Positions 2,785 through 31,998 of a stretch of 32,000 nucleotides of DNA are shown here, piece by piece. The stretch is from an archaeon. Lineage in GTDB: Archaea; Asgardarchaeota; Thorarchaeia; Thorarchaeales; Thorarchaeaceae. Position 1 is the stretch's first letter. Every line of letters begins with the position of its first letter. The stretch covers positions 30,001-62,000 of the forward strand of contig JAJRZD010000017.1 in the NCBI GenBank assembly GCA_024275415.1. Reading direction: 5' to 3'. The notes beneath the pieces are model-generated. The model did not search any database. It saw nothing but the letters and a program-made list of their open reading frames with translations, and was not told the origin of the DNA. Made by a program: the position numbers and the translations under genes.

Positions 2785-3048
2785 ATGCCAAAGCCAGTAG
2801 GAAAAAGAATACAGGTCGCAGAAGGAGCCGCGTGGTGCGGACGCCAACTGCTAGTGATAGTGTTAACAGCAGTCGTGGTTGGCATTATCTATTTCACGAA
2901 CTTGATTGGATACCTCATAGAAATTGCCGGTGTGCCAGTACATTACGCTCTGCTGATCATCGCAGGAATGATAGTAAGTTTTGTTGGAATCGTTGTCTGG
3001 CTCATCATGTATTCTATCAAATACACGGAGCGTGTCAAACATGTCTGA
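2785..3048 (+). CDS. Small two-helix hydrophobic protein (87 aa), candidate virion membrane or capsid protein
   Basis: Starts 2 nt after the spike stop. Two hydrophobic helices with basic ends. Confidence 0.75.
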   Translation: MPKPVGKRIQVAEGAAWCGRQLLVIVLTAVVVGIIYFTNLIGYLIEIAGVPVHYALLIIAGMIVSFVGIVVWLIMYSIKYTERVKHV

Positions 3049-3601
3049 TGTGACTGCCGAGCGCGAGTTCGCTCCCGTTCAGGAGCGGGAAGAACCTGAA
3101 AGCGAAAAGAAGGCGCTCATAACTGTCTTCGGTGTGGTCATCATCGTAGTCATTGTCGGTGTGGTTGTGTGGCTATCACCATTCTTTATCCCATACTGGG
3201 AATTCATGGGCGTCGCATGGCTCTGGGGCTACATTCCAATATCTCTCTTTGTCACAGTGTTAATCATCATGGCTGTGAGAGAATCAATCTCGCATCGTAT
3301 CCACAAGAAGGCTCAAGGGCGTTTTCTTTCACTAGACATTGGCAACTCCGGAGAAGAAGAGTGGAGTGAAACATTCAGGGTGAATTGGATTGTAGAAATC
3401 GACTTCAACAAGCATGGTTACGAACAACTGACCTCTGAGCAAAGACGGGTCATTGATGAGTATGATATCGCTCTTGAGAAGATCCGACAGACCTCACAAT
3501 ACAACGACCTGAAACGTAAGTTGACCGCGAAATCGAGAGAACCCACCGAATCTCGTTGGAGAGAGATGCTTAAACTGACAAGGAGGGACACAAGTGACTG
3601 A
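3041..3601 (+). CDS. Hypothetical membrane protein (186 aa, two N-terminal TM helices)
   Basis: ATG 3041 overlaps the previous stop, so it is preferred over the track start at 2981. Two hydrophobic segments are followed by a charged domain. Confidence 0.75.
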   Translation: MSDVTAEREFAPVQEREEPESEKKALITVFGVVIIVVIVGVVVWLSPFFIPYWEFMGVAWLWGYIPISLFVTVLIIMAVRESISHRIHKKAQGRFLSLDIGNSGEEEWSETFRVNWIVEIDFNKHGYEQLTSEQRRVIDEYDIALEKIRQTSQYNDLKRKLTAKSREPTESRWREMLKLTRRDTSD

Positions 3602-4436
3602 AACCAGCACGGCTGAAACAGAGTTGCAGAAGCTAGAACAGAAATGGCACGAAACGATAAAAGATAAGGATCTTGATGCGCTCGCTTCGGAAGCACACGT
3701 AATTAAGCGTGACATCGAACGGTTCGCAAGGAAACATGAAGGGCTACACCGAGCACTGAAATCTGAGATACAGACCCTCTTGGATCATCACGGCATCATG
3801 CCTAAGACGTGGCCCGGTTTGAAGAATTTGAAAGCATACTTGGTCGGGAGTGATAAGAGTGTTCGACTCTTAGTTTGTCCGAGTTCATTCGAGGATTGTT
3901 TCCACTTCGGCGACATCGAAATTCCTATCGCTGGGTGGTTCGCTAAAGTGAGCATGGCGTTCGGGTCTGCTGCACACATAGGCCCTGTAGTCCCATTCAT
4001 TGAGGACGACCTTACATCGTATTCGGTCCCACTCCAGGTCATCATCGGTTCTCGTTGGCATCGACAACAGTTCTTCAAGGCGATGGACTATTGGATGCAC
4101 ATGGATGGTAAAGAAATCATGAATCAAATTGACCTCGTTGATGAGTTTCAGAGCGCGAAGCTAGCTGCAATTCTCCTCACGATCGGGCGACAATTCAGAA
4201 GTGTCTGGGAGGCTCTTCTAACAAATGATAGAACGATTGTTTCATTTGGTGACGAGCTCGCGGCTTCGGCTATCCGTGATTTCACGCTCGGCATTGACGC
4301 CGGTGTGCCCGAGGACGAAGAAGAGGAGATTCACTTCTGGTCTAATATCTCATGGAAGAGGGCGGCTGGGGTCGTATTGCTTGTGGCATTGATCATAATC
4401 TCCGGGATTTTTATTATTGGAGCGTTGATTACATGA
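3594..4436 (+). CDS. Hypothetical protein with C-terminal TM anchor (280 aa)
   Basis: GTG start overlaps the upstream stop. N-terminal coiled-coil-like segment and a C-terminal hydrophobic helix. Confidence 0.75.
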   Translation: MTETSTAETELQKLEQKWHETIKDKDLDALASEAHVIKRDIERFARKHEGLHRALKSEIQTLLDHHGIMPKTWPGLKNLKAYLVGSDKSVRLLVCPSSFEDCFHFGDIEIPIAGWFAKVSMAFGSAAHIGPVVPFIEDDLTSYSVPLQVIIGSRWHRQQFFKAMDYWMHMDGKEIMNQIDLVDEFQSAKLAAILLTIGRQFRSVWEALLTNDRTIVSFGDELAASAIRDFTLGIDAGVPEDEEEEIHFWSNISWKRAAGVVLLVALIIISGIFIIGALIT

Positions 4437-4921
4437 GTGATGATGAATATCTTCGAGAGCATGTCCCACAATCAGTCCTTTCAGAACAATATTACCGAGA
4501 CAAGGGTCTCCGTGCTGCTGGTATAACAGTCGAAGCAATCGTTAATGACGCATTGGAACGCGAACCCGGCATCCACGGAATATGGGTTCATCCTAATATG
4601 CAAAGACCAGCAAAGAAATTCGTGAAACATGAGCGAATGCTGAAGCTGAAACACAGATCTGCAAAAACGAATAGGCTGTCAAGAACCGCAAATGCACTGC
4701 GAGATTTGCATGTCACACTTCATGAACTCTATGACGGTTACCATCCACCCGTCAGGACGATGGTAATGGGTGCCGCACCTGGAGAGCCCGCAACGGAGGT
4801 CGTTCCAATTCGATCGGGCTCGGATGAATTCAATCTCCTGACGAGTGCTCGGGAGCGTGTTGCTCGATCAGCCGATGCCGAGTCGGTCGTGAGGGATGAT
4901 AGTGAAGACCGAGGAACTTGA
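4433..4921 (+). CDS. Hypothetical protein (162 aa)
   Basis: ATGA overlap with the previous gene fixes the start at 4433 rather than 4352. Confidence 0.65.
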   Translation: MSDDEYLREHVPQSVLSEQYYRDKGLRAAGITVEAIVNDALEREPGIHGIWVHPNMQRPAKKFVKHERMLKLKHRSAKTNRLSRTANALRDLHVTLHELYDGYHPPVRTMVMGAAPGEPATEVVPIRSGSDEFNLLTSARERVARSADAESVVRDDSEDRGT

Positions 4922-6773
4922 GCGTGCGCGATATGATGTTTTGCCAACCCCCTATCCAGTTGGTAGAGGTGCAGATGGGTATCCATGCTACATTCAACAA
5001 GTCAGGACACAGAAAGGCGTCGAAATATGGCCGGTAGTGCCATTTCATGTGCGGCGATTCCCCCCTAGACGTGGATGGTGGAAACGAACAAAGGATCCAT
5101 GGATTGACAGATTCGACCAAGCATGGGAGTTCGATCAGAAATTCTGGAAGATTGTCGATGTCTACAGGGATTCCTGGAAACGTAGAATCATCAAGAACAA
5201 GTCGCTTAGGCGAGCAATACAGATTGACGGCACATGGAGGGTCTTGCGTTCGTTCAAGCAACTCGCTACCGGCATGAGCAAGAAGCATGAGGGCGGAAAT
5301 GTAGTATTCGCAATACGCGGATGGAAACGAACCGGAAAGACATACTTGGGCAAAATCCTTGGGAAGGTCTGGACCAATGTGATGCGTGATGAATACGGGA
5401 TTGAGAGCGATATCAAGACAGTTTTCGGCGTCAATCAAGTCCGCAAGATCCACAAGAAATGCAATAGAGGTGATTTCATTCTATGCGACGAAAGCGCAAA
5501 GCTAACCTCGAGCGGTGCGATCACAGCCATCATCAATCTCGTAAACATATTGGAGATATCCGGGCTGGATCAGATAGCGGTCGGATTCATTGGCCCGAAT
5601 TTCGACTTCAAAAGCGTGGGCGGAGCGCTTGACATGGGCTTCGATGTCCTTGGAGCCAACTTTGAACATGAGATGATACGGGCCCTAGTTTATGACAAGG
5701 AGGCTGAACCTCTCTATTGTGCCGGATTTCAACGTAATTTTCTTGCATCTGAATTCCCGACTTATCATGAAGCAAAAGCTAAGAAGAGCAAGGCGATTCG
5801 CGAAGATGACGGCGCAGAAGAAATCTGGGACGAGGAGGAATTCCAACAGGATGTTGCAAGACTAGTCGAGTACGCAAAAGAGGAATATGCCCATCAGCTT
5901 CGAGCGAAGCGATTTCCGCGGATCACGAGCCTAGAAGGTGATGCAAAGGATCTTCGAATCATCGGACACAGCGATTATATGAAGCGGGTTGCCTCGAAAG
6001 CACGTGACAAGCTTGAAAATTATGTGTATTCCCTCCCGGACACAAAAGAAACACCCCCTGACATACGTGTAGAGCACATTCCTGACGGGGAGGAGGAAAG
6101 AACACACATCTTTGTCCCATACCTCATCGCTGCGACGAACGCATATGTTTCCCAACCCCGATTCCGAGCTAACAAAAGGGCTATCCGACGATTCACACGA
6201 TTCTACTTCGAGAATCTCACCTATCAAGACATCGCCGAATTAGAATCAGATGAGAATAATGATGACCCTGATTACCACCGTGTGACCGCTAACAACATCG
6301 GAAAGGCTGTCAGAGGGTTGAGAAAAAAACTCAATAACAATGATGTCGGCGCCATAGGCGAGCTTGCAGTCATGAAATTCTTGGAATCTCGCCTCCCGCA
6401 GACACTCTCTCTGGTGCGTGGGCGGCGGTGCGGGTGCCTGGAGTCGGCTGACAACGACATCGACCTTGGGGTCGGGGACGAGGAGGGGGAACGGTTCGTG
6501 GCGGTGAACGTGAAGTTGTTCTTGAGCGAGAGGGACGGGTCGGTGATCCACTGCAGCCCGGAGTTCAGGCACAGCCCACACATGTGCGTGGTGGTCGAGG
6601 TGCGGCGGAAGGAGGGGTTGCGAGTGGAGGTGCTGCTGAACGGTCCCGAGGTGGAGACCCAGGCGCAGGCCAGGGAGGAGGGCAGGGTCGTCGACCTGGA
6701 ACGGATGGTGGGACTCCTGACCTTCGGCATTGGTTCTCCGGCGGTGGGTGCGGGGGAGGAGGCTTTCACGTGA
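4896..6773 (+). CDS. P-loop ATPase fused to an HTH and a C-terminal PD-(D/E)XK nuclease-like domain (625 aa)
   Basis: Walker A GWKRTGKT (about 5319), Walker B FILCDE (about 5475), HTH-like LTYQDIAE...ANNIGKAVRGL, and nuclease-like GAIGELAVMKFL...DIDL...VAVNVK from about 6348. Confidence 0.8.
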   Translation: MIVKTEELERARYDVLPTPYPVGRGADGYPCYIQQVRTQKGVEIWPVVPFHVRRFPPRRGWWKRTKDPWIDRFDQAWEFDQKFWKIVDVYRDSWKRRIIKNKSLRRAIQIDGTWRVLRSFKQLATGMSKKHEGGNVVFAIRGWKRTGKTYLGKILGKVWTNVMRDEYGIESDIKTVFGVNQVRKIHKKCNRGDFILCDESAKLTSSGAITAIINLVNILEISGLDQIAVGFIGPNFDFKSVGGALDMGFDVLGANFEHEMIRALVYDKEAEPLYCAGFQRNFLASEFPTYHEAKAKKSKAIREDDGAEEIWDEEEFQQDVARLVEYAKEEYAHQLRAKRFPRITSLEGDAKDLRIIGHSDYMKRVASKARDKLENYVYSLPDTKETPPDIRVEHIPDGEEERTHIFVPYLIAATNAYVSQPRFRANKRAIRRFTRFYFENLTYQDIAELESDENNDDPDYHRVTANNIGKAVRGLRKKLNNNDVGAIGELAVMKFLESRLPQTLSLVRGRRCGCLESADNDIDLGVGDEEGERFVAVNVKLFLSERDGSVIHCSPEFRHSPHMCVVVEVRRKEGLRVEVLLNGPEVETQAQAREEGRVVDLERMVGLLTFGIGSPAVGAGEEAFT

Positions 6774-6786
6774 AAGGCAAGGATCT

Positions 6787-6808
6787 GGGAGGGGTGGGTG
6801 TGTGCGGG
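6787..6808 (+). other. Canonical G-quadruplex-forming motif
   Basis: GGG-A-GGGG-T-GGG-TGTGTGC-GGG fits G3+N1-7 x4 and lies just after the ATPase stop. Confidence 0.5.
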
Positions 6809-6905
6809 AGATGAGCCATGCGGTATGAGAGCAGGAGCCTATTGAGCATTATTCACAGTTACACTTCCTGTGTATGTATCTCTCATGAGTAAACTTATGA
6901 ACAAG

Positions 6906-6929
6906 TTATTATCTAATAGCATGCTACTA
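6906..6929 (+). promoter_or_regulatory. TATA-like box plus 16-bp palindrome (putative operator) before the cargo operon
   Basis: TTATTAT at 6906-6912, about 30 nt before ATG 6940. TAATAGCATGCTACTA at 6914-6929 is a palindrome with one mismatch and a perfect TAGCATGCTA core. Confidence 0.5.
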
Positions 6930-6939
6930 AATAGACGAG

Positions 6940-7443
6940 ATGAGCACATTGCCGGATGATAGTGGGGCCGATTGGGATAGGACTGGGGATAAAGATGTCA
7001 AAAAACAAATTCATGATTATCTATTGGCGCTCTTCGTTGCCAATAACGCAGAACCTATCAGAGGCCGGATAATGCTGATTAAGCAGGCTTTCATTCTTTT
7101 CAAAGAGATTGTTCCCGAGCTGAAATCAAAAGTCAAATTCTTCCCCTATGAATGGGGTCCTTATAGTAATGACATAGCAGCAGGCATCAATGAGATGATC
7201 ACAAAAGGGTACATAGGTGTCCGGACTGAGGGGCGGGATAAGATCTATTATCTGACTCCGCTTGGACTGAAACAGGCCAAGTCCGCCATACAATCGATTC
7301 CAAAGGACTACTTAGAGGATATTGAACGGATGAAAATGACCACTCAAGAGATGGGGTTGAGTAGGCTTCTCCGGTTCATCTATTCTAATTATCCTCAATA
7401 TGCAAAATACTCTCGGGGGCGCGAAACATATGTCACTACCTGA
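6940..7443 (+). CDS. Panacea/SocA (DUF4065)-like antitoxin-domain protein (167 aa)
   Basis: PIRGRIMLIKQAFIL...FFPYEWGPYSNDI...LLRFIYSNYP resembles the SocA/DUF4065 pattern (P-x-x-G-R-x-x-L-x-K, GP[YV]S). Confidence 0.7.
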   Translation: MSTLPDDSGADWDRTGDKDVKKQIHDYLLALFVANNAEPIRGRIMLIKQAFILFKEIVPELKSKVKFFPYEWGPYSNDIAAGINEMITKGYIGVRTEGRDKIYYLTPLGLKQAKSAIQSIPKDYLEDIERMKMTTQEMGLSRLLRFIYSNYPQYAKYSRGRETYVTT

Positions 7444-8023
7444 CCTATTATCATTTGTTTTTTTCATATTAGGGGGCGGAGGTGCTGCAATTGGCATTCA
7501 TCTCAAGCTCGCCGAGCAATGGCTGAAGGACAAGAATGACCAAGTGGACAATCTTGTTGATGCCAAGCGATTCGCATTCATGGAATCATTGAATGAATCC
7601 TGCAAGAAAAGATCCGAAATGGAAGAGGAGAACGAAGAGGAATTCCCTCTTATTGGATTTGGCAGTCTTTATGAGTCTGTGGGTGAATTGACACGACTGG
7701 CTGAAGAATTCGATGCTGTAAATGGGTGCCTTTTTCAGTTGTCTCGGATTGTGCGGGATGGGGCCAAATACTGGCTCTTCGCTGCAATTACTCTCTGCAT
7801 TGGTTCGTTTTTGGTTTATATTGATGAATTCCTGCGAACTATCTGGTCTTTTGAAATTCTGAGTATTGCATTGATTATTGCATACCCCCTCTTTGTAATC
7901 ACCTTCTTGTTCGCGATGTTTGCGGTCAGAACCCTAATTATCACGTTGAATAAACTGAATAGATTAGATGAACAAAGCGAGGAACTTCAAAGATATGAGC
8001 GACAATGGAGGAAAAGAACATGA
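7430..8023 (+). CDS. Hypothetical 3-TM membrane protein (197 aa)
   Basis: ATG 7430 overlaps the upstream gene. One N-terminal and two C-terminal hydrophobic helices flank an acidic helical loop. Confidence 0.75.
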   Translation: MSLPDLLSFVFFILGGGGAAIGIHLKLAEQWLKDKNDQVDNLVDAKRFAFMESLNESCKKRSEMEEENEEEFPLIGFGSLYESVGELTRLAEEFDAVNGCLFQLSRIVRDGAKYWLFAAITLCIGSFLVYIDEFLRTIWSFEILSIALIIAYPLFVITFLFAMFAVRTLIITLNKLNRLDEQSEELQRYERQWRKRT

Positions 8024-9285
8024 ATCGGCCAGTGAGAATCATCAATATGACCGATAGCGGGCGTACCCTATCAGTGTCTATTAATAGTAAGAAGTTCACA
8101 ACACCCACGCGTGCTGTCATTCATACGGAGCTTGACAAGTTCGCACAACTCGTAACAAGGTACCAGAAACAGATTTCTTCTGTCGAACCGCCACCAAGCG
8201 AAATCCAAGAAACTGTGTTGGACTTTACTAAGGGTTCGCTACAGGCGCTAGTGTCTCGAAATGAAGAGGTACCAAGACGAATAGCTTCGCTGAAGAAACG
8301 GAATAAGAATGGATCTAACCGACTTAAGATCTGCAATCCGCGATTGACTACGCAAACTGAAACCGTCAATATTAATGAAATCAGGATGTTAGCACTACTG
8401 CAAATCGAGGCTCATTGCTTGGATATGATTACAATTCCAGACCCGAGTTTCACTAATCCTTCAGCGGATTTGCTTGATGCTGCTCTCGCTCAGGCCAGAA
8501 AACTGGCTGATGACCACGGAATGGATCGGATTCCTATCATGCCTTTATTCGACCTGAAAACCGAGCCTGATGATCTTGAATTACGTCTAAAAAGAGTATT
8601 GGATGAAGGACACACATTCATCGGGTTTCGATATCGCATGAAAAAGTTTGCCAGTATGGAACGCGTCAGACAAATTCTGGCTGACAAAGAGGTCTGGGTA
8701 CATCTAACGGGAGTATTCAAGAATCACTCCTCAAGGCCTATCAAACCACAGATCCACATAATGCCATTATATTCTTTTGATAGTGTTTCGAGTTACAAAT
8801 ACTTCGGCGGCCCCCGGAAATCAAGTTCTGAGGCCTTGGAGTTTCCCATAGTTCCGGAAAGAAGGGATCCAGGTGTCCGTGTGTACTTGGAACATATGAC
8901 TGCACACATTCCAATTGGAATCATCGATCCACTCGCCAATGAGAGAAGATTTGATTCTAATGCATTGGGTTTTCTCACCAAGGACATTCATCATGACTTA
9001 TGCGGAGATGCATTGAACTGTGATTGTTTCATATGTGCGGGGCGAACAATTGACCAGTTCTACGAAACCTATGGTATTGAGAATGGCAGTCCATCCCTAC
9101 CACGATTGAGATTGCATCAGAACATTCACGAGCTATATGCAAGTCATTCTGAATTCCAAGCTGCGCAGAAAAGGCTGACTAATGAAAGTTATCTCGAATA
9201 TCTCCGAGAAAAACCAGTTGTTCAACAGTATTTGAAAAACGAACGCGAATTCATTATCAGCTCAAGGCTTGATTCATTCACGTGA
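8020..9285 (+). CDS. Divergent tRNA-guanine transglycosylase (TGT)-fold protein with Zn site (421 aa)
   Basis: ATGA overlap and GGAGG SD at 8007. TGT-like landmarks appear in order: RT...FTTP, DMITIPD, FIGF, WVHLTGV, SFDSV, CDCFIC (9019-9036) and a later His-bearing helix (LHQNIHELY). Confidence 0.65.
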   Translation: MNRPVRIINMTDSGRTLSVSINSKKFTTPTRAVIHTELDKFAQLVTRYQKQISSVEPPPSEIQETVLDFTKGSLQALVSRNEEVPRRIASLKKRNKNGSNRLKICNPRLTTQTETVNINEIRMLALLQIEAHCLDMITIPDPSFTNPSADLLDAALAQARKLADDHGMDRIPIMPLFDLKTEPDDLELRLKRVLDEGHTFIGFRYRMKKFASMERVRQILADKEVWVHLTGVFKNHSSRPIKPQIHIMPLYSFDSVSSYKYFGGPRKSSSEALEFPIVPERRDPGVRVYLEHMTAHIPIGIIDPLANERRFDSNALGFLTKDIHHDLCGDALNCDCFICAGRTIDQFYETYGIENGSPSLPRLRLHQNIHELYASHSEFQAAQKRLTNESYLEYLREKPVVQQYLKNEREFIISSRLDSFT

Positions 9286-11488: not shown

Positions 11489-12090
11489 TGGAGTCCCAAG
11501 AAACGCACCCGGGCGCCACCACGCCAGCATCACTCCCCGAGTTGCGTGAGCACTTAGTTTTTTCCCAACCCTCCCAGATACTGTGGGTGGAGAGGAAAAG
11601 GCTCCTGAATATGCGAGAGTACGGTCTTGCGGACTACGAGAACTCGGAGATCAAGATGAAGATTCCCTTCGAAACCACTCTTCCGGTTTCAAACGAATTC
11701 ATTCGCAAAGCCATATCGTCAGTGGATGCGGTGATTTCAGAGTGGGAAAGTTCCGAGCTCAAACGCATCCAGGAGTCCAATGATGCATTCCACGAACAAA
11801 GCAAGAAGGCTCGCAGGGAGGAATCTGTCAAATACAAGTGGAAACAGATCATGGAAGGTCTGAAACCCCGTGAGGATCCCCTACCCGACAGGGTCGTGGA
11901 CTATGTGAAACGGGGTGTCGAAGCTGATGCCCAAGAGATTTGTGAAGAGTTCTCAGAAGAGTTCGGTGAAGAAGCCGTCCTGGGCGCAATAATTGGGCTC
12001 GTCACTGGTTGGAAACCACGACTCGAGGAGATTCACCCAGGACTGTTCCGACTCGTCGCGGACGACAATCTGGAGGACGAAGGCGAATGA
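11488..12090 (+). CDS. Hypothetical protein (200 aa), possible C-terminal winged helix
   Basis: TAATG coupling to the upstream gene. C-terminal RVVDYVKRG...AQEICEEF...LFRLV resembles a wHTH. Confidence 0.7.
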   Translation: MESQETHPGATTPASLPELREHLVFSQPSQILWVERKRLLNMREYGLADYENSEIKMKIPFETTLPVSNEFIRKAISSVDAVISEWESSELKRIQESNDAFHEQSKKARREESVKYKWKQIMEGLKPREDPLPDRVVDYVKRGVEADAQEICEEFSEEFGEEAVLGAIIGLVTGWKPRLEEIHPGLFRLVADDNLEDEGE

Positions 12091-13892
12091 CCGCGACAGA
12101 ACAAAGACAAGTGTCCCATGATGCCGTGAAGAACCTCTTCGAGGAGAAGCCGGATATTATCCCAGTACAATATCAAGAGTCGATCATCAAGCACCTGGTG
12201 GATGGTGTTTCAAAGACGAAGGCTGCTGAATCAGTGGGGATATCAAGGCCGAGCTGGCAACGGCATCTCGAGAAAGTCCAGAGAGCGCTTGAAACCTTTC
12301 ACGTGGAAGGCGAAAGATTGGATCCCAGACGCCAGCGCATCGAGTATATCCACCCAACTCGCATTGATGTGACCACATTCCAGCCAAGGAACATTGACGA
12401 TCCAAGCGAGGCATTCATCGAGGATATCCGTCGTCATGGTGGGAATCACCAGGCGATTACTGTGAGAGAGAAGCCCCGTCGCTATGGGTCTAAAGACTAT
12501 GACTGCATTAAGGGACACCGCCGGCTGAAAGCATTGCTTGCGATCAATGCAGGACTCTCCCCAGCCGAGCATTTGCTTGCGAAATGTATTGTCGAGCCAT
12601 TGGATGACAAACAGGCCGCCCTGGAATCGCTTACAGACAATATGTTCCACAAGGACTTGGAAACAACAGACAGAGATCTATGGATTGCGAAGCTTGTTTT
12701 AGACTATGGATGGACACCATCTCAACTAGATGAGAGATTCGAGGACCTGAGCGCTGACGCGATATCGAACATCGTACGTTCATACCGTGACGCGACAGCC
12801 ACAGTAAGGGCACTGCTAGATTCAAGAGATATCGCGGTCGGACACGTCAAGGCCATCGTATCACTGCCTCCAGAGGATCAGGATCGGATAGCAGATCGTA
12901 TCTTGAAGCGGATCAAGGACTCCGTGACCGATGGGACTTTTCCTTTCGGGGGTCCAAGCGTCAGAGAAGTTGAGTCTTGGGCACGGATGGCTCGGAACCG
13001 GAACGAGGCTGTAAAGCGTCTCGAGTCGTATTTCACCGAACTGGTCAACAAAGGTGAAACGATACTGCATGTACGAAACTCTGATGAAATAGTCCAACAG
13101 GTCTTTGGCGGTTTCAGATACAACGATTACCGAGTGCGTGACTACGATGTAGCGAATGCCGCCAAGGCCGCAGGCATCACACTCGAATATCCGCCCCTCG
13201 AAGATTCACTTAACGAACTTAGAGACAAGTACTCTCTTCAAGAGGAGGAAGGTGGAAAGAGTGGTTCTGATGGCAAGCGATTGATAGATAATGAGAGCTG
13301 GATGGAGAAAAAGGATGAGGCAGTGATTGAAGAATCACCACCTAAAGACCTATGCAATAATTGCGCGGCGTTCAGCCATGCAGAACAGATATGTGCACTG
13401 GGGCTACTAGAAGTAGGGTTGAAACCCGAAGAAGTATTTGAATGTCCTGGGTTCTTGCATTCTGATGATAGGCGACCTTTCGTTTCGCAATGCCCTATCT
13501 GCAAGCATCAAACAATGGTCATCCACGGTGAAACTCCCTATCTTAATGAAACCCCGAGTGCAATCTCTCTTACACACGATTCCCCTCATGCGGAATTCAG
13601 AATGCACACGCAATGTGTTGCACAGCATCTGATCCGAAAGAAACTCCTCAGTGGGATGTGTGAGTCGTGCAGCGGTGCATTCTGTCCATTCATCCATTCC
13701 GACAACATGGTTTCGATTGTCGGACAGATCCGGATGGACATCAAGGAATGCGGCTATCTTTCCAAGAAACAAAAGTTGTCCGAGATCAACAAGTGGGCGG
13801 ACGGTGAGTACCGTGCTGCTCAGGTCAGGAAAAGGCGAAGTCGGCCGGGAGGACGAACCCCTGAGAAACGAGGGTGGGCGGCAAAGCAATGA
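12087..13892 (+). CDS. ParB/Srx-domain protein with N-terminal HTH and C-terminal Cys/His-rich domains (601 aa)
   Basis: ATGA overlap. HTH GVSKTKAAESVGIS; ParB-N motifs FQPR, AITVR, GHRRLKAL, LTDNMFHKDL; ParB-type HTH; then CNNC, CPIC and CESCSGAFC clusters. Confidence 0.8.
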   Translation: MTATEQRQVSHDAVKNLFEEKPDIIPVQYQESIIKHLVDGVSKTKAAESVGISRPSWQRHLEKVQRALETFHVEGERLDPRRQRIEYIHPTRIDVTTFQPRNIDDPSEAFIEDIRRHGGNHQAITVREKPRRYGSKDYDCIKGHRRLKALLAINAGLSPAEHLLAKCIVEPLDDKQAALESLTDNMFHKDLETTDRDLWIAKLVLDYGWTPSQLDERFEDLSADAISNIVRSYRDATATVRALLDSRDIAVGHVKAIVSLPPEDQDRIADRILKRIKDSVTDGTFPFGGPSVREVESWARMARNRNEAVKRLESYFTELVNKGETILHVRNSDEIVQQVFGGFRYNDYRVRDYDVANAAKAAGITLEYPPLEDSLNELRDKYSLQEEEGGKSGSDGKRLIDNESWMEKKDEAVIEESPPKDLCNNCAAFSHAEQICALGLLEVGLKPEEVFECPGFLHSDDRRPFVSQCPICKHQTMVIHGETPYLNETPSAISLTHDSPHAEFRMHTQCVAQHLIRKKLLSGMCESCSGAFCPFIHSDNMVSIVGQIRMDIKECGYLSKKQKLSEINKWADGEYRAAQVRKRRSRPGGRTPEKRGWAAKQ

Positions 13893-15931: not shown

Positions 15932-16155
15932 ATGTGGTGGTCAGAGTACCAGAGCCGCATTGCAGACTATGCTCACACTACAATGAATCAGGTGTTGCTC
16001 CCTATTGTCTATGGCATCATCGGGTCATCGATCGGCCATCGTCCGACCGATGCAATGACTTTGAGGACGCAATCTTTGAGGCTACGATGAGGTCACACAC
16101 AAGACGACTGGTCGATTCGACCTTTCACGTGAAAGGTAGGAGGAGAGGACGATGA
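15928..16155 (+). CDS. Small Cys-rich protein (75 aa; CxxC...C...C)
   Basis: ATGA overlaps. Sequence CRLCSHY...YCLWH...RCNDFE. Confidence 0.65.
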   Translation: MNVVVRVPEPHCRLCSHYNESGVAPYCLWHHRVIDRPSSDRCNDFEDAIFEATMRSHTRRLVDSTFHVKGRRRGR

Positions 16156-17913: not shown

Positions 17914-18125
17914 GCGAGATAGAAGAACCACCTATGACCCGTGAGTTGTTTCGTTTGCTTTCTGCTGGAGTTTCTTTAGTATTTCAGCGTATAATTGATC
18001 AACTAAGCCCTGAAACAATTCAGATGATGCTGAAAGACCTTCAAGAGCTTGAGTCGCTGTCGCCTGCGTCTGTTCCTGAAGTGCCTCTTCAGAGAGAGGT
18101 AGGCGACACCGCGAGCATAAACTAG
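17910..18125 (+). CDS. Hypothetical protein (71 aa) overlapping the integrase 3' end in antisense
   Basis: GGAGGT SD and an ATGA overlap like the preceding eight genes. Confidence 0.45.
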   Translation: MSEIEEPPMTRELFRLLSAGVSLVFQRIIDQLSPETIQMMLKDLQELESLSPASVPEVPLQREVGDTASIN

Positions 18126-19083
18126 CGTCTGCTTCATTGATTGCGCCACAATTTGGACATTGAATCGGTTGTGGTATATTGTTATCTTTTGGCAGAATCC
18201 CTAGATATTTCAGCTCCGCTTTATGTAGGTCTTCCTGATCTAATATCGCATAGTATTGTTCAAGCACTTGGCTATCTTTCTTGTGCCCCATCCTAAGCTT
18301 GACTTCTAATGGCGAAAGCCGTCCTTCTCTTAGAAGTTGTGTTGCTCTGGAATGTCGAAAAAGATATGGAAAGAGAGAGCATTTAGGGCCATGACTCCCA
18401 CGCCCAAGTCTAACATCATGTTGAATTTGCAGTGTGTTTCGAATAGTTTTGACCGTCGGACGGCGCCCAAAGCGATTGATGAAGAGCGGAGCCTCATTGT
18501 CATCCCTCTTTGGATGCACCGCAAACCAATTCTCAAAGGTTTTGATAGCAGCCGGAATCAATAGAGTGACATTGCGCCGACCCTGTTCATTTTTCACTTT
18601 ATCAAATTTGAACTGGTAACCATAACGGGTCTGAATCACATCTCCGACGTCCAACTTCAGAACAGCGCCAGGTCTTCGTCCAGTGTCAAAGACAACCATA
18701 TAGAATGCCTTCAACCAAAGAAGCTCTGTATTTTCACAAATGTCTACGAGTTCCTCCCAGGTAATCAAGTCACTTGAGCGTATCTTTCGTTTTGGCTTAT
18801 GTCGCTTCCGACCCAAAGCTCGTTTCAGGTCCTTATCGATATCGAGCTTGTTGAACTCCATTAGTCGCGTCAGAATATACTTTCGTGCATTCAATGTTTG
18901 GACAGAAAGATGTGTCATCTTCGACAGGATATCTAGTGGCTGCGGGTTTTCAGGATCCAGAGAATATGTATTGATCATCGCATCGAGATTCTGCTCATAG
19001 TTCTGTAATGTTGAATCGGCCATCGCGACGTCGGAAACATCACGAAGATAATTTAGAAACCGCTTGCGGTCGAAAGAGGCCAT
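17932..19083 (-). CDS. int: Tyrosine recombinase/integrase with C-terminal Zn ribbon (about 383 aa)
   Basis: DTGRRPGAV (catalytic R), YLFRHSRAT (HxxR), MGH, EQYY (catalytic Tyr region) and CPNCG...CSRC. Start 19083 is preferred because a TATA box lies 26 nt upstream. Confidence 0.95.
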   Translation of the reverse strand: MASFDRKRFLNYLRDVSDVAMADSTLQNYEQNLDAMINTYSLDPENPQPLDILSKMTHLSVQTLNARKYILTRLMEFNKLDIDKDLKRALGRKRHKPKRKIRSSDLITWEELVDICENTELLWLKAFYMVVFDTGRRPGAVLKLDVGDVIQTRYGYQFKFDKVKNEQGRRNVTLLIPAAIKTFENWFAVHPKRDDNEAPLFINRFGRRPTVKTIRNTLQIQHDVRLGRGSHGPKCSLFPYLFRHSRATQLLREGRLSPLEVKLRMGHKKDSQVLEQYYAILDQEDLHKAELKYLGILPKDNNIPQPIQCPNCGAINEADASLCSRCRLPLSEEALQEQTQATATQALEGLSASSELFQGLVDQLYAEILKKLQQKANETTHGS

Positions 19084-19108
19084 GTTTGGGACATTCGAGT
19101 TGCCCTCA

Positions 19109-19115
19109 TATATAA
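19109..19115 (-). promoter_or_regulatory. Archaeal TATA box for a leaderless integrase transcript
   Basis: TTATATA on the minus strand, 26 nt before ATG 19083. Confidence 0.55.
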
Positions 19116-19463
19116 TTATGGAGTTATTTGCCCTCATGAAGAGCCCTTCTTTTCGTAACATGCCCTCATTACACAAACTCCCCCCCTCCTACCACGATAG
19201 CCTTGTTATCTCCGACCACACCTTTTCTATGTCCGCATTTTGAGGATTAGAAACAGTCGACGCTAATGTATCTCGACTCCATCAATAGCAATTACTTTGC
19301 ATTACAGAGGCCTAGCGAAAAAACAAATACGAATTCGTAAATCTTATTTTTCAATTTTCCAATATTAGTGCGGTCTGAAGAAGAGAAAAACCCGATACCA
19401 GCGTTGTGCTTCTTGAAGCTGGTGTCTTCTCATTTAGGAATCATCTACGCTTGAGGTGATTAC

Positions 19464-26187: not shown

Positions 26188-29154
26188 TCAAAGACCATTC
26201 GCATTCTTTGGGAACCACAACTCGAATCGGGCTCCCTGTTCTGGTTTGCCCTCCACCCTGTCGGACACGGATATCATACCACCATATTTTTCGATGATTT
26301 GGTTCGACTGGTGCAGTCCCACGCCACCATATCGTCGGGTCATGTCAAAGAGTTCCTTCTTCCGTTTATCTCCAATTCCAGGCCCGTTATCTGCAACTGA
26401 AACGACGAAAGCATCGTTTCTTTCTTCAAGAACTATCCAGACATGCCTCTCAGGATTCCTGTTGTGCTCGATTGCATTGCTGATGACGTTCGTGAGAAGC
26501 AATTCCAAGAAACCGTCTGCCATGATTTCTGCATCATCGACAGTTAACTCATTGTGGAATTGGACATTCAATGAATAGACCGAAAGGGCGTTCACACAGT
26601 TCTGAAGTGCATTCAAGAGCGAACGCCTTGTTAGTGGCAAGGTCATAAGGTATTCCGTGGCTCGTACCTCTTCGATAAGCCTTGAACATCTTTGGACGGC
26701 ATCTTCAATGATGCCAAAGAACGAAGACCTCACATGCTCATCAGTTGCAGTCCTCAATAGTGTGGCACTGTTCATGATCACTTGTAGCTGTTGGCGAATG
26801 TCATGCCCCATCAGGTCTAGATACAGATTCGCTCGATCCTTCTCAGTACGTATCGCCCTCTCTGCTTTCCAACGCTCAGTGGTGTCTATCCAAACGGTTT
26901 GTATGGCGTCCTCTCCCTGGAACTCGATTTTCTGTGCGTATGACTCCAACCATCTTATGGAACCATCAGGTAGCACGACCCTACATTCGAATGCTGAAGG
27001 CATTGGCTTGCCTGCTACCTTGGCTTGAGCTCTTCTCCTTAATACTTCTCTATCTTCAGTATGAAATATGTCCCATACCTGTTCTGGTTCCAGCCCCATG
27101 AGGTCATCGACAGGTCTTCCGACCATCTCGGCAAAGGCGGAATTCACATAGACAAAACCATGATCCGATATTATAGTCAGTCCCTGCAAACTCTGCTCTG
27201 CCAATGTTCGATATTTCTGCTCTGACTTTCTCAATGCCTCCTCAGATTCTACTCGATCTGTCACATCTTCCTGAGTACAGAGAATGCCGATGACATCGCC
27301 GTTCTCATCGAATAGAGGAACCTTAGTTGTTCGCAACCATGCATCTTTCCCGTCTGCACGGAGTTGATGTTCGATCACATCATAAAGCACAGTCCCCGTT
27401 TCAATGACCTTGCGGTCACTTTCTCTAATCTTCTCAGCTTCTTCTTTTCTCCATGCGAGGTCAAAGTCAGTCTTTCCGACAATTTAGTTGACATTTTGGA
27501 CGCCTGCTGCCTTAGCGTAGTTCTCGTTGCACCCAAGATAGACCAGCGATGTGTCTTTCCAGAAAATGAATTGCGGAATATTATCCATCACGAGCTGGAG
27601 CATCTTTTGTGAGGCTTTTAGCTTCATCTCTGCACTCTTTCGTTCGGTGATGTCAATCACATGGATCTGTGTTGCCGGCTTACCTCCGAATACTATCATG
27701 CCTGCAAAGGCCTCGACCCACCTTACTGTTCCGTCCTTCCTCACGAAACGATACTCGTAAGGACATGGGGTTGGCTTCCCTTCTCTACGCAATGCTGCAA
27801 GCTCCAAGAGATAGGGCTTATCATCAGGGTAGATAAGATTCCAGCCTTCTTCGGATGACATCGCAAGAATCTCTTCCTGTGTATAGCCAACAATCTCAGC
27901 GAAAGCCGGGTTGACATACGCATACTTTCGGTCTTGGATGACCGTGAGACCTTGGAGGGATTCCTCTGCGAGAGTCCTATAGTTTGCCTCCGACTGCCTT
28001 CGCGCCTCTTCCGCTTGTTTAACATCACTGACATCATCAAATGCGACGAGGACGCCTTCCACCTCATCATTTGCTCCGATGATAGGTGCCACTCGATATT
28101 GCAGGTAGACTTGTCTGTTATCACTTGAAGTATAATTAATCTCTCCCTCACGAATCTCCCTTTTCATTATCGCATCTTTGAATACCTGAGGGATGTCCAA
28201 TTTGACAAGTGCAGGAAAAGAGAGGATATTTCGTCCCGTGACAATCTTCTCATACGATGAACCAATGATTTGTTGGGCATACCTGTTTATACCCGTGATA
28301 TCCCCTTCAGTATTCAACGTTATCAACCCGAAGGGGGTCTCATTGAATAGCATCCTGTATCTCATCTCGGAAGATTTGAGTGCTTCCAGCATTTTCTTGT
28401 GCCCTGTCACATCAACAATCACACCAAGTGCCCCTGTGAGGTTACCCTTCGAATCAAAAATTCCTCGTGGTGTCGTGAGTGTGTGAATTATGTTGCCCGC
28501 TTTGGATTTCCATGTGACCTCATAGGTTCGAGAGAAGTCCTTTTGTGGTTCTTTTATCCACGAATCGACCTCAGCAACCTCGTCCTCGTGCATGAATTGC
28601 AGGACTGGGGCTCCAATTAGCTCTTCATCCGAATACCCAAGAATCCTTTTGATGCTGTGATTGGCATATGTTATCTTATACCCGGGATCAACGATGAGCA
28701 GCCCCTCGTCCATCGCCTCGAGAACGGAACGATAAAGATGCTTGCTCCGCTCCAGCGCTTGGATAACTTTTCTTAGCTTCGAGATATCTGTAACGACTGC
28801 ATATGAGCCTCTATGGTTTCCCTCGTCATCTACAAGTGGTGCTCCCGACACAATTGTCTGGATTTTACTACCATCGCTTGCTATCCACTCGACCTCGTAT
28901 TGGGATGAATGCCCCTGCTCCCTTTTCTTGATGTTCTCCAACAGGATAGCACGGTTCTTCTCATCCATGAAGTCAGTGATTGGTCGTCCGATGAGATCAT
29001 CGAGGGTGTACTTCAATAGCTCTGCAAACCTTTTGTTCACATAGACGAATTCCTTTTGGATATTCACGACACCAAAGGCATCATTCATGGAGTCCACTAG
29101 GGCATGGTATCGTAAGATATCATCAGTGTCACCCTTCATGGCAGATTCATCCAA
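26188..29154 (-). pseudogene. Six-PAS cytoplasmic sensor histidine kinase interrupted by an in-frame TAA at 27484-27486
   Basis: The two track ORFs share a frame: ...[38 protein letters not shown]... continues PAS 5 without a break. H-box DLMGHDIRQQL, N-box NVISNAIEH, G-boxes DNGPGI and GGVGL. Confidence 0.85.
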
Positions 29155-29363
29155 TGTTTCACGAGCGTAAATCGATACTATAACTGTTATCTGGATAGAC
29201 CATGAAAGTAGTCACCATTTAACTATACATGTCATTGCATGCAGCCGACGAGTGCCGTTGTATTTCTAACGAAACTTGTAAGTATCCTGCGACCCCCAAT
29301 GTTTTTAGGATTTGACAATTGCATGATAGGTGCTATCATATTGGCAAAAGGGGAACTTGGAAA

Positions 29364-29789
29364 ATGGATGTTGAAGCGGACAAATACGAAGAGATACAGG
29401 TTGGAGATAGAGCTGAAGTGATTCATACTATCACAGAACAGGACATTCAGACATTTGGCGAGTTAAGTGGTGATTTTAATCCTCTACATTTTGATGATGA
29501 ATGGGCGAAGAACACGCTCTTCAAGGGACGCATTGCCCATGGTCTTTTGACTGCCGCCTTTATCAGCACTGCAATAGGGATGCACATTCCAGGGGCTGGA
29601 ACAATTTATCTTGGACAATCATTACGTTTTCATAAGCCGGTCAGAATAAACGACACAATTACCGCGGTTGTCGAGGTCATAGGGAAGGATGACAAAAAAC
29701 GCCACATCCGATTGAAGACGACCTGCACGAATCAGGAAGGGACTACAGTGCTCGATGGAGAGGCCCTTGTTACTGTGATGAAGCATTGA
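29364..29789 (+). CDS. MaoC-family dehydratase / (R)-specific enoyl-CoA hydratase (141 aa)
   Basis: FGELSGDFNPLHFD...IAHGLL...PGAGTIYLGQSLRFHKPV. Confidence 0.92.
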   Translation: MDVEADKYEEIQVGDRAEVIHTITEQDIQTFGELSGDFNPLHFDDEWAKNTLFKGRIAHGLLTAAFISTAIGMHIPGAGTIYLGQSLRFHKPVRINDTITAVVEVIGKDDKKRHIRLKTTCTNQEGTTVLDGEALVTVMKH

Positions 29790-31998
29790 CAATAGGTAGC
29801 TCCACGATGAACTTAGAACCTCTATCGTGAAATCCTTCCACACGGTCCTCTATCCAAGCATGTCCATGATACCGTTCAGCGATGTATCTAACAAGGGTCA
29901 GGCCCATACCCGACCCCAAGGTCTTACCCTTCTCTAGCCGACTGAACAGCTCATCGCGCCGTGTGTACGGGATTCCTGGTCCCTCGTCAACTATCGCAAC
30001 GTTGACGAACCCCGGCCTGGCTCCGGACTCCACCTCAATCTGGATAGCGACTTCGTCTCTTGGGTCATATTTCATTGCGTTATGGATCATGTTGTAGAAC
30101 AGGTCGATAAGGAACTCGTCCGCTTTGACTAACACCTGCCCGGATCCAAATTTCACATCGACACGTGCTTGTTTAAGAGGGAACGCGTGTTGCGTCATCA
30201 TTATCGCGTTTTCCAAGACACCATGAAGGTCAATCGTAACAAGATTGGGCTCCTTGTCCATATCAATGATGGATAGCTTTCTCACATTTTCGATAAGCTG
30301 AAGCCCTCTGGTCACCTGCTCCCGTATCGCTTGTGCGTGGAGTCTGCTTGAATCCGAAAGCCCAATATCCATCAATAGGAGTTCAGCTCCAATCAAAATG
30401 CCCTGATGTACGTTATTCAGGTCGTGTGCAAGAAGATCCGCATAGAACTCCGCCCGAGCCTGCTCCTCTTCCAGTTTTCTCCGAGTCCGGTTTAATTCGG
30501 TGACATCGCGGACTGTGGTCAACCTGACAACGTCATCCTCATAGTCCACATAATCAATGTTCAGCAGGACATCGAGAAGCGCTCCATCTTTCCTCTTAAA
30601 GTGAACAAGCAGATCCCGTACAAACCCGTTGCTATGAAGCTCTTCTGTGACACGGTTTCTTTCCGTGCTTGTTGTATAGATATCATATGCTGACATCCAT
30701 TCAAGCTCGTCTGCAGAAAAACCAAGCAACTCCTGAAAAGACAAGTTCGTGTCTAGGATGTCCCCTGTTTCGGTCGTGACTCCAATGGCAACAGGGGCTG
30801 TTTCAAAGAGAACCTGATACCGTCTTTTTTCTAGTCTGAGGGCATCAAGGATCCTTTCATTCTCAGTGATGTCTTCTCCTGAACTAAGTGCTCCAATTAT
30901 CTTTCCATCCTCGTTTCGAAGCAGGGTATTGCTCCATGATATGGTGCGAATCTCACCAGTTCTAGTTCTGATGTTATTTATCCGTTCAGCAGGGAGCTCT
31001 CTGGAACCGAGCATAAGTTGCCGGTATTCGTCCCATGCAGCCTGATAGCCGCCATTTGGGACTGCCAATTCGAACCAGTTCTTACCAATCAGGTCTTTTT
31101 CTGGATAGCCAAGAATCTGACATACTTTCTGGTTAAGCAACATGATGTCGCCATTCACATCCAATGCCACTACCATAACACCGACCAGATCCAAATACAT
31201 CTGCGACCGCTCGTGCTCCTTCTTTAAGGCACGTTCATTCTCTTTTCTCGCGGTCACATTCCTGATTATTGCCTGAAAATACAGTGGTGTGCCATTCTGT
31301 TCTCTCAGGAGGGAAAGTTTGACCTCTCCGTAGAATCTCTCTTGATTCATTTTCAGGAACTCGTGCTCACATGGGGGCAAATCTTTGCCACTCTGAATCT
31401 GCTTCAAATGCATTTCCACTTTCCTAGATTCATCACTCCAAAGCAGTTGTGCAAAGGGACTTCCTTCTAATCCCCCTTGCGAAAACCCGAACATTTCTTT
31501 TGCACGTTGGTTTGACTCCAAGATGTCCCTGTCTAGCGATAATATCAATACAGCGTCATTGTTTTGTTCAAAAAGAGCCCTGTATTTATACTCCCGTTCC
31601 AAGGCATCTCGTTCTTTCTGTTTCATTTCTGTCACATCTCTGACGAGGGACTGATACCCAACGGGCCTGTTGTCCTCGTCGTATAGGATCGTATTGGTGG
31701 TGTGGAACACAAACTCGGAACCATCTTTCCTCAGCCCGATAGCCTCCATCCCGTTCGGGTTATCTTCAAGAGAACTCAGTCGTTGTCTGAATAGATTCGC
31801 TACCCGATCTCGTTCGCTGTGAGCCAGCAACTCGGTGAAGTGCATTCCTAGTAGCTCGTCTGTTTCATACCCGAACAATGATGTTCCCTTGGCGCCCGTC
31901 AACGTGATGAAGCCATGCATGTCGGTTTGAAAAATGGCGTCTGACAGGTTCTCATACAGATAACGAAATGATGTACTGGTCGCTTCTGGTTCAATGGC
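29770..31998 (-). CDS. Multi-PAS (at least 4) sensor histidine kinase (5' partial)
   Basis: The frame stays open to the window end (AIEPEATSTSFRYLYENLSDAIFQTDMHGF...). H-box DLLAHDLNN, N-box NMIHNAMKY, G-boxes DEGPGI and GSGMGL. Confidence 0.92.
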   Translation of the reverse strand, partial: AIEPEATSTSFRYLYENLSDAIFQTDMHGFITLTGAKGTSLFGYETDELLGMHFTELLAHSERDRVANLFRQRLSSLEDNPNGMEAIGLRKDGSEFVFHTTNTILYDEDNRPVGYQSLVRDVTEMKQKERDALEREYKYRALFEQNNDAVLILSLDRDILESNQRAKEMFGFSQGGLEGSPFAQLLWSDESRKVEMHLKQIQSGKDLPPCEHEFLKMNQERFYGEVKLSLLREQNGTPLYFQAIIRNVTARKENERALKKEHERSQMYLDLVGVMVVALDVNGDIMLLNQKVCQILGYPEKDLIGKNWFELAVPNGGYQAAWDEYRQLMLGSRELPAERINNIRTRTGEIRTISWSNTLLRNEDGKIIGALSSGEDITENERILDALRLEKRRYQVLFETAPVAIGVTTETGDILDTNLSFQELLGFSADELEWMSAYDIYTTSTERNRVTEELHSNGFVRDLLVHFKRKDGALLDVLLNIDYVDYEDDVVRLTTVRDVTELNRTRRKLEEEQARAEFYADLLAHDLNNVHQGILIGAELLLMDIGLSDSSRLHAQAIREQVTRGLQLIENVRKLSIIDMDKEPNLVTIDLHGVLENAIMMTQHAFPLKQARVDVKFGSGQVLVKADEFLIDLFYNMIHNAMKYDPRDEVAIQIEVESGARPGFVNVAIVDEGPGIPYTRRDELFSRLEKGKTLGSGMGLTLVRYIAERYHGHAWIEDRVEGFHDRGSKFIVELPIVNASSQ

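Follow-up and report, generated by a model that had tools for sequence, protein, structure and literature searches.

A predicted ATPase–helix-turn-helix–nuclease fusion closing the membrane-protein operon of an Asgard provirus: a possible functional analogue of terminases

The role of B251/His1-type ATPases, in replication or in genome export, has been debated for decades. The provirus described here, from an Asgard archaeon that probably belongs to the Thorarchaeia and shares its GTDB phylum with Ca. Heimdallarchaeum, raises this question in a particular form, as its ATPase of this type continues in the same polypeptide into a helix-turn-helix (HTH) and a nuclease-like domain: what would such an ATPase do with a nuclease of its own? 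Our proposal, made tentatively and with slightly less than even confidence, is that a HeimV1-like Asgard provirus, probably an enveloped one, uses the fusion protein as its ATPase for virion morphogenesis (genome export), and that the nuclease is a gained module for genome selection and processing. The protein is predicted to be a cut-and-package motor, i.e. a functional terminase analogue from outside the terminase family, which we regard as the likeliest of the readings compared here, quite possible if somewhat short of probable. A natural ATPase-nuclease fusion with a candidate target site makes the coupling of cleavage to ATP testable with one purified protein. If the proposal is true, there was a second origin of cut-and-package, in membrane-wrapped viruses and from unrelated parts.

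The window, i.e. the whole stretch of 32,000 nucleotides that was analysed, corresponds to C119:30001-62000. The provirus is 24.7 kb long and is bounded by an exact 50-bp direct repeat, with attR at 19157-19206 of the window and attL at C119:24513-24562, 5.5 kb upstream of the window; no tRNA is present at the att site. A tyrosine integrase is encoded at 17932-19176 (minus strand). The att core overlaps the 5' start of the integrase gene and a GGAGG-rich stretch, and integration may rewire integrase expression. A sequence similar to the att core occurs at C127:8406-8453, between host genes, and a host cluster of multi-PAS sensor histidine kinases is located at 26188-31998 of the window.

The left half of the provirus forms one membrane-protein operon on the plus strand, which includes an Rce1-like protease and a spike/adhesin-like protein of 1182 aa (3' part of the gene at 1-2782) with a signal peptide and a C-terminal transmembrane (TM) segment, homologous to a HeimV1 protein of 1822 aa. 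Then follow two genes for small membrane proteins (2785-3601; 87 aa and about 190-206 aa, each with two TM segments), a gene for a 280-aa protein with a C-terminal TM segment (3594-4436) and, immediately upstream of the ATPase, one for a small soluble protein (4352-4921). By position, the last two are counterparts of SSV1 B277 and A154, respectively, homology not being detected. The fusion gene closes this operon, as the first-pass annotation had stated. To its right lie cargo genes, a regulator switch and the genes for a ParB-like protein (12009-13892, plus strand; homologous to HeimV1 ParB), MazG and the integrase. The order of spike, membrane proteins, C-terminal-TM protein, small soluble protein and ATPase recurs in about 14 loci, with G228 departing from it, and the replication modules of these loci differ (D5 helicase, PCNA or ParB).

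Homology of the structural genes to the His1/SSV1 capsid protein or to pleolipovirus VP3 or VP4 was not detected in profile comparisons. With shallow profiles, HHalign probabilities were 0.1% for the upstream partners against B277 and A154, and 0.4% or less for the provirus against VP3 and VP4. The family of 87-aa proteins with two TM segments reached 0.5% against a His1/VP1-like MCP profile, the best provirus ORF having an E-value of 0.13. Among the provirus proteins scanned, no Pfam or PHROG match to a portal or HK97 capsid was found, and the structural block is rich in TM segments.

Several other genes of the provirus deserve mention. The Rce1-like CAAX protease (L080:2349-3074), of which L001 and L003 have counterparts, and a small HExxH/M50-like protein (L080:4435-4830) possibly serve a virus-encoded maturation of membrane proteins. 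Two ORFs of 234 and 183 aa at G000:C119:27473-28801 (L080:3074-4402) match the halves of a single 441-aa gene of L001, which may reflect a defective provirus or an assembly error. Among the cargo genes, the one at 8005-9285 encodes a 426-aa protein without a family match, carrying a CxCxxC...H motif that recalls the zinc sites of tRNA-guanine transglycosylase/DpdA; it is preceded by a wHTH antitoxin-like gene at 6940-7443 (PDC-M19A and DarG-like matches).

The fusion gene is an open ORF at 4896-6773 (plus strand, 625 aa) and encodes the sole P-loop protein of the provirus. The likelier start is the GTG at 4902, giving 623 aa (P0001), because the SD-like sequence GTGAGGG lies 6 nt before this GTG and abuts the ATG at 4896. 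An AF2 model based on an alignment of 24 sequences (mean pLDDT 79, parts of the nuclease domain reaching only 37-75; an earlier fold from 5 sequences was poor, with a pLDDT of 51) shows, in this order, an N-terminal extension, a RecA/Zot/P4-like ATPase, a helical domain, a linker, an HTH and a PD-(D/E)XK core. The B251/His1-ORF16/Zot-like P-loop ATPase domain is encoded at 5193-5810 (about residues 100-305), the helical middle domain, which is followed by the linker of low confidence, at 5823-6035 (about residues 310-380), the sigma4/TerS-like HTH at 6171-6332 (residues 426-479, by structural match) and the PD-(D/E)XK-fold domain at 6333-6731 (about residues 480-612), all on the plus strand.

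Domain-wise structural matches thus bear out the earlier claim that a single ORF joins a P-loop ATPase, an HTH and a PD-(D/E)XK domain, and the domain assignment is confirmed at the level of a model. The helical domain at about 310-380 had been missed. Hydropathy analysis revealed no TM segment, again as first stated. Searches of Pfam, PHROG and PADLOC gave no match for the window protein itself, and two of its relatives weakly matched MADS mad8. We attribute an antisense open frame within the gene (6272-6769) to high GC3. A chimeric assembly as the source of the fusion was ruled out by the recurrence of the full fusion in about 30 independent proteins.

The ATPase domain is related to known viral ATPases. 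Residues 122-287 match phi8 P4 (VIA-align Z 8.7, rmsd 3.4, 151 residues aligned), and other fold matches include Zot, ATV p286 and A32. In profile comparison, HHalign gives the domain 92% to the B251 group (E 6e-7, over 114 columns) and 91% to His1 ORF16, and phrog_5484, which is the B251 family, is matched as well. The homologous P-loop core, spanning Walker A, Walker B and the sensor strand, is shared with the B251/His1-ORF16/pI-like ATPases. Two features had been presented as more novel than they are: His1 ORF16 already ends in an HTH, and pI-like ATPases without a TM segment are standard in fuselloviruses and wyrdviruses (10.1101/2021.07.29.453957). The new part of the fusion is the nuclease only. 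In the wyrdvirus paper, a TM-less pI-like ATPase follows the adhesin and a block of five genes, and a nuclease is not mentioned (10.1101/2021.07.29.453957).

The active site of the ATPase shows a characteristic exchange of arginines. Walker A reads GWKRTGKT (residues 142-149, encoded at 5319-5342) and contains the P-loop residue Arg145; Walker B comprises D198-E199 (5487-5492). An Arg finger before the sensor strand is present in 26 of the 35 family members and absent in the window protein, which has Gly223 at this position. An Arg at K-3 of the Walker A Lys occurs in all nine members without the finger and in none of the 26 with it. These nine fall in three places on the tree, and a Fisher p-value for the swap overstates their independence. 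The occurrence of the P-loop Arg in exactly these nine members, at three places in the tree, points to selection on the ATPase site, and we infer from the sequences that this Arg is a compensatory move within it. The same K-3 register is occupied by R44 of D6E TerL (PMC5727402). No match to PF03237 (Terminase_6N) was found in the genomes G000, G016 and G315, and tblastn of the ATPase domain against a phage collection yielded noise only. In the ESM Atlas, many clusters of viral ATPases of 270-350 aa, some with an HTH, are labelled Uroviricota and resemble the N-terminal part of the fusion; they may be mislabelled relatives without a nuclease. A tandem double ATPase (Zot-like plus B251-like; L078:534-2213, P0022) is encoded on an unrelated contig.

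Residues 426-479 match HTH domains such as the G20C small terminase (Z 7.5, rmsd 1.3, 48 aligned) and sigma region 4 (Z 7.0; both VIA-align); we take the resemblance to TerS as generic for an HTH. Residues 477-617 are structurally most similar to the homing endonuclease I-Ssp6803I (Z 7.5, rmsd 4.1, 122 aligned), and ThaI (Z 6.9), NhoI (6.8) and Hje (6.7) follow, with 99-126 residues aligned across the four (VIA-align); taken alone, Z values of 6.7-7.5 are middling. The sequence profile of the C-terminal domain has full-length Hje as its best PDB match, with the catalytic motifs in register (E 0.11), and Hjc is also listed. The structural matches and the profile match to Hje agree on the alpha-beta-beta-beta-alpha-beta core of PD-(D/E)XK nucleases. 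The C-terminus therefore does model as PD-(D/E)XK, in agreement with the earlier prediction of a nuclease other than the RNase H type, and the motifs named at that time are all present, i.e. the GxxGE helix (G485/E489), D521 and N538-V-K540.

In the family alignment, 31 of 32 members have E489 and D521; a motif census finds the Lys in every one of the 32, and P555-E556 is mostly retained. As a rule, the acidic residue of (D/E)-x-K is missing: the position of the second acid holds N in 19 members, S in 11, and A and E in one each, the lone E giving a canonical E-V-K. The Asn that had been pointed out at this position is indeed present (N538), but it is hardly an oddity, since N or S is the family norm with an active precedent in ThaI. 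This enzyme cuts with Glu/Asp/Ser-x-Lys, also when the Ser is changed to Ala (S91A; PMC3025569), and variants of the PD-XXK-E type are likewise established (PMC551604). The nuclease domain is predicted from its sequence to be likely active.

One alternative that follows from the similarity to Hje and Hjc is a motor-coupled resolvase, in which the C-terminal nuclease would clear branches or junctions during export by the ATPase, with no specific site needed. T4 endonuclease VII does such branch removal during packaging. A host Hjc could supply the function, which would also explain losses of the nuclease. However, Hjc and Hje retain the E-x-K that is lost in the fusion family, and the HTH, the module swaps, the GC3 spike and the downstream motif described below would be left unexplained. 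We consider a resolvase fairly unlikely, although it deserves to be weighed.

With phmmer, 29 matches to the fusion protein were found among 1.8 billion representatives, and strong matches in a profile search (E below 1e-18) were obtained in about 17 of 400 Asgard-phylum genomes; a related-locus search with query A1 in IMG/VR and GTDB gave no relatives. On the question, raised earlier, whether homologous viral ATPases carry or lack the nuclease, the fusion family gives a mixed answer. The domain is present in 33 of 35 aligned members (one cut by the contig end) at about 20% identity and in many Asgard families, and two members (G202 and G252c280) end after the HTH. Grouping of these two with the nuclease-bearing G228 at 100/100 indicates, as far as the tree goes, a secondary loss. 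A keyword search of openly searchable text showed no description of the fusion in later Asgard virus papers, and no pairing of ATPase and nuclease for membrane-wrapped viruses was found in the literature searched.

The HTH-nuclease part has a history of its own. Identities in the ATPase and in the nuclease correlate weakly (Mantel rho 0.14). P0025 and P0028, for instance, are 79% identical in the ATPase and 30% in the nuclease, and the nuclease of P0008 is 57% identical to that of P0026, a member of another ATPase clade. In a quick tree, the HTH-nuclease data reject the clade that the ATPase defines around the window protein (p-AU 0.0003). By these computations, the HTH-nuclease module has been swapped between ATPase lineages. 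Such discordance is as expected if a specificity module travels together with its site, comparable to the exchange of TerS with pac in P22-like phages. Composition changes within the gene as well: over the catalytic core (6411-6710, plus strand) GC3 is 0.92 versus a gene mean of 0.59, a value reached in 0 of 2000 shuffles. The spike is also significant in L001, L002 and G054, not in most other loci, and in none of four control genes. Lone 3' pieces of the gene, of 0.2-0.7 kb, occur among unrelated genes in several Thorarchaeia-family genomes, and in the genome of the window a second nuclease-domain fragment, of another subtype, is present at a contig start (G000:C4:1-325).

The strong tree discordance, the compositional step and the isolated 3' fragments in other islands could also be read as traces of a homing-type passenger, i.e. 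an HTH plus PD-(D/E)XK module that cuts the allele of a co-resident relative and is copied in, with the ATPase performing ordinary morphogenesis. The similarity to I-Ssp6803I fits such a passenger, as do stand-alone phage proteins of 160-220 aa with sigma4-HTH/PDDEXK_5 features (Atlas score 0.81-0.87, a lead only). Against it, the nuclease is an in-frame terminal fusion, without intron or intein, that has been kept with its catalytic residues intact throughout this divergent family; the Pfam family PF11645 (PDDEXK_5) has no match across 10 members, and no intact free-standing copy of the HTH-nuclease module was seen. We judge homing improbable.

The DNA at the gene end carries two elements. 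A parS-like palindrome, TTTCACGTGAAA, at 6764-6775 overlaps the stop codon of the fusion gene. Copies of TT(T/C)CACGTG(A/G)AA are found in the window at 6764-6775, 12297-12308 and 16123-16134; three of the four genome copies lie within the ParB-encoding provirus, L001 has four, L071 and L072 also contain it, and it is absent from L003 and L077, which lack ParB. This distribution is likely to reflect a bacterial-type ParB/parS pair in an Asgard virus. Further downstream, sequence comparison across loci revealed a conserved non-coding motif of 13 bp, GGTGTGTGCGGGA, at 6797-6809 (plus strand), which is our candidate cis site. The motif or its 12-bp core occurs 3' of the fusion gene or its remnant in eight loci with the nuclease subtype of the window protein, similarity between loci stops directly after it, and it is absent after genes of other nuclease subtypes. 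The exact 13-mer had seven matches in other genomes, four of which are chance matches inside host genes; the control gave four hits. On the excised circle, the motif (window 6797, C119:36797) lies 63 bp from the point opposite att; this does not hold for L003 or HeimV1 and may be a coincidence.

The succession at the gene end of a GC-rich block, the palindrome, the G-rich motif and an AT-rich stretch (6850-6950 at only 32-34% GC) could also suit a replication enzyme, whose ATPase-HTH part would recognise an origin located there and whose nuclease would nick this origin or resolve termini. The provirus has no recognised Rep, solo gene fragments persist in decayed elements, and B251 has carried a DnaA-like annotation for a long time and has been connected with replication (PMC9608457). 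Yet the place of the gene, at the end of a late membrane operon, is fixed, whereas members differ in their separate replication genes, and the RecA/Zot/P4-like fold of the ATPase is not clearly that of an AAA+ initiator. A role in initiation or termination of replication seems to us distinctly improbable. Very unlikely, finally, is a catalytically dead tail whose nuclease fold only aids the HTH in selecting viral DNA: it would fit the N or S that replaces the second acid in 30 of 32 members, the dispensability of the domain in one lineage and the moderate confidence of its model, but E, D and K are conserved despite a median domain identity of about 18%, ThaI cuts even if this position is Ser or Ala, PD-XXK-E variants exist, and one member has the canonical motif.

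We therefore return to the cut-and-package motor and propose the following sequence of events. The surfaces of HTH and nuclease would bind to a cis site that lies within the 3' end of their own gene or immediately behind it. The PD-(D/E)XK domain would nick or cut there with E489, D521 and K540, N538 and the downstream E556 completing the site. The ATPase, presumably a ring that the upstream TM protein and the small adaptor keep at the membrane, would feed the DNA into a budding or extruded particle. The outcome would be a one-polypeptide functional analogue of TerS plus TerL, made of different parts.

A terminase-analogous role had been suggested by the first-pass annotation. The candidate cis site, the module swapping and the P-loop Arg speak for it indirectly, as does the constant place of the gene in the operon, and the absence of an identified capsid and the two nuclease losses speak against it. 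Several further points count against cut-and-package. HeimV1 replicates as a circle, the 13-bp motif is limited to one subtype and adjoins the parS-like site, the resemblance of the HTH to TerS is generic, and neither the best fold match nor the best sequence match is a packaging nuclease, one being a homing endonuclease and the other a resolvase. The motif could instead mark an origin, a partition or a transcription element. We know of no linear or nicked virion DNA for HeimV1-like elements, and fusello-, halspi- and pleolipoviruses, to our knowledge, package without a fused nuclease. A more far-reaching picture, which we hold to be somewhat doubtful, is that the HeimV1-like elements represent an undescribed family of enveloped Asgard viruses, whose ATPase independently became a single-chain terminase analogue with a convergent P-loop Arg, cutting a pac-like site where its own gene ends, and in which module and site are exchanged together.

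Compared with known systems, the fusion protein shares its homologous TM-less core with SSV1 B251, His1 ORF16 and the wyrdviral ATPases, and its gene comes after those for a TM protein and for a small soluble one, as in the SSV1 series B277-A154-B251. B251 and A154 have been linked to roles in replication and packaging (PMC9608457), and the wyrdviral ATPase to one in extrusion (10.1101/2021.07.29.453957). Unlike B251 and ORF16, the fusion protein is twice as long, with an extra helical domain and the PD-(D/E)XK domain, and the clade of the window protein has a P-loop Arg in place of the Arg finger. Its neighbours, moreover, are not detectably homologous to those in spindle-shaped or pleomorphic archaeal viruses, and no His1-like capsid protein was found. 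With Hjc/Hje, I-Ssp6803I and ThaI the nuclease shares a minimal PD-(D/E)XK core, and with ThaI an active site of the E/D/(S)-x-K type. These enzymes, in contrast, are free-standing dimers or tetramers, whereas the fusion domain is joined to an HTH and a motor and has N/S-x-K with a conserved downstream PE.

The likeness to TerS plus TerL lies in the functions combined at the packaging position (those of ATPase, HTH and nuclease), with a possible cis site in or next to the gene. The P-loop Arg at K-3 is shared with D6E TerL, which, unlike the fusion, keeps both cis and trans arginines. Terminases differ in that the nuclease is of the RNase H type, the ATPase is not B251/Zot-like and the functions are not united in one polypeptide; neither the portal nor the HK97 capsid of the tailed-virus setting was seen in the provirus.

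The closest known relative is HeimV1 of Ca. Heimdallarchaeum endolithica, which corresponds to G016 C1:1-31 kb, where the published primers map. It likewise encodes the fusion, here 653 aa long, and an integrase, its spike (E 6e-19) and ParB (E 5e-12) are homologous to those of the window provirus, and its genes come in the same order; it differs in adjoining tRNA-Gly and in keeping the Arg finger, neither of which applies to the window provirus. In the sections of PMC8813620 considered here, HeimV1 is shown to circularise and to replicate bidirectionally, and it is read through 'tail fibre' predictions, with the ATPase not described in those sections. The 'tail fibre' block of HeimV1 (L040/L041) consists of proteins with a signal peptide and a C-terminal TM segment, and its genome has no Terminase_6N match, a gene content that suggests an enveloped rather than a tailed virus. 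Through the fusion family, HeimV1, whose activity has been shown by experiment, is tied to a wide range of Asgard proviruses laid out like membrane viruses and not like tailed ones.
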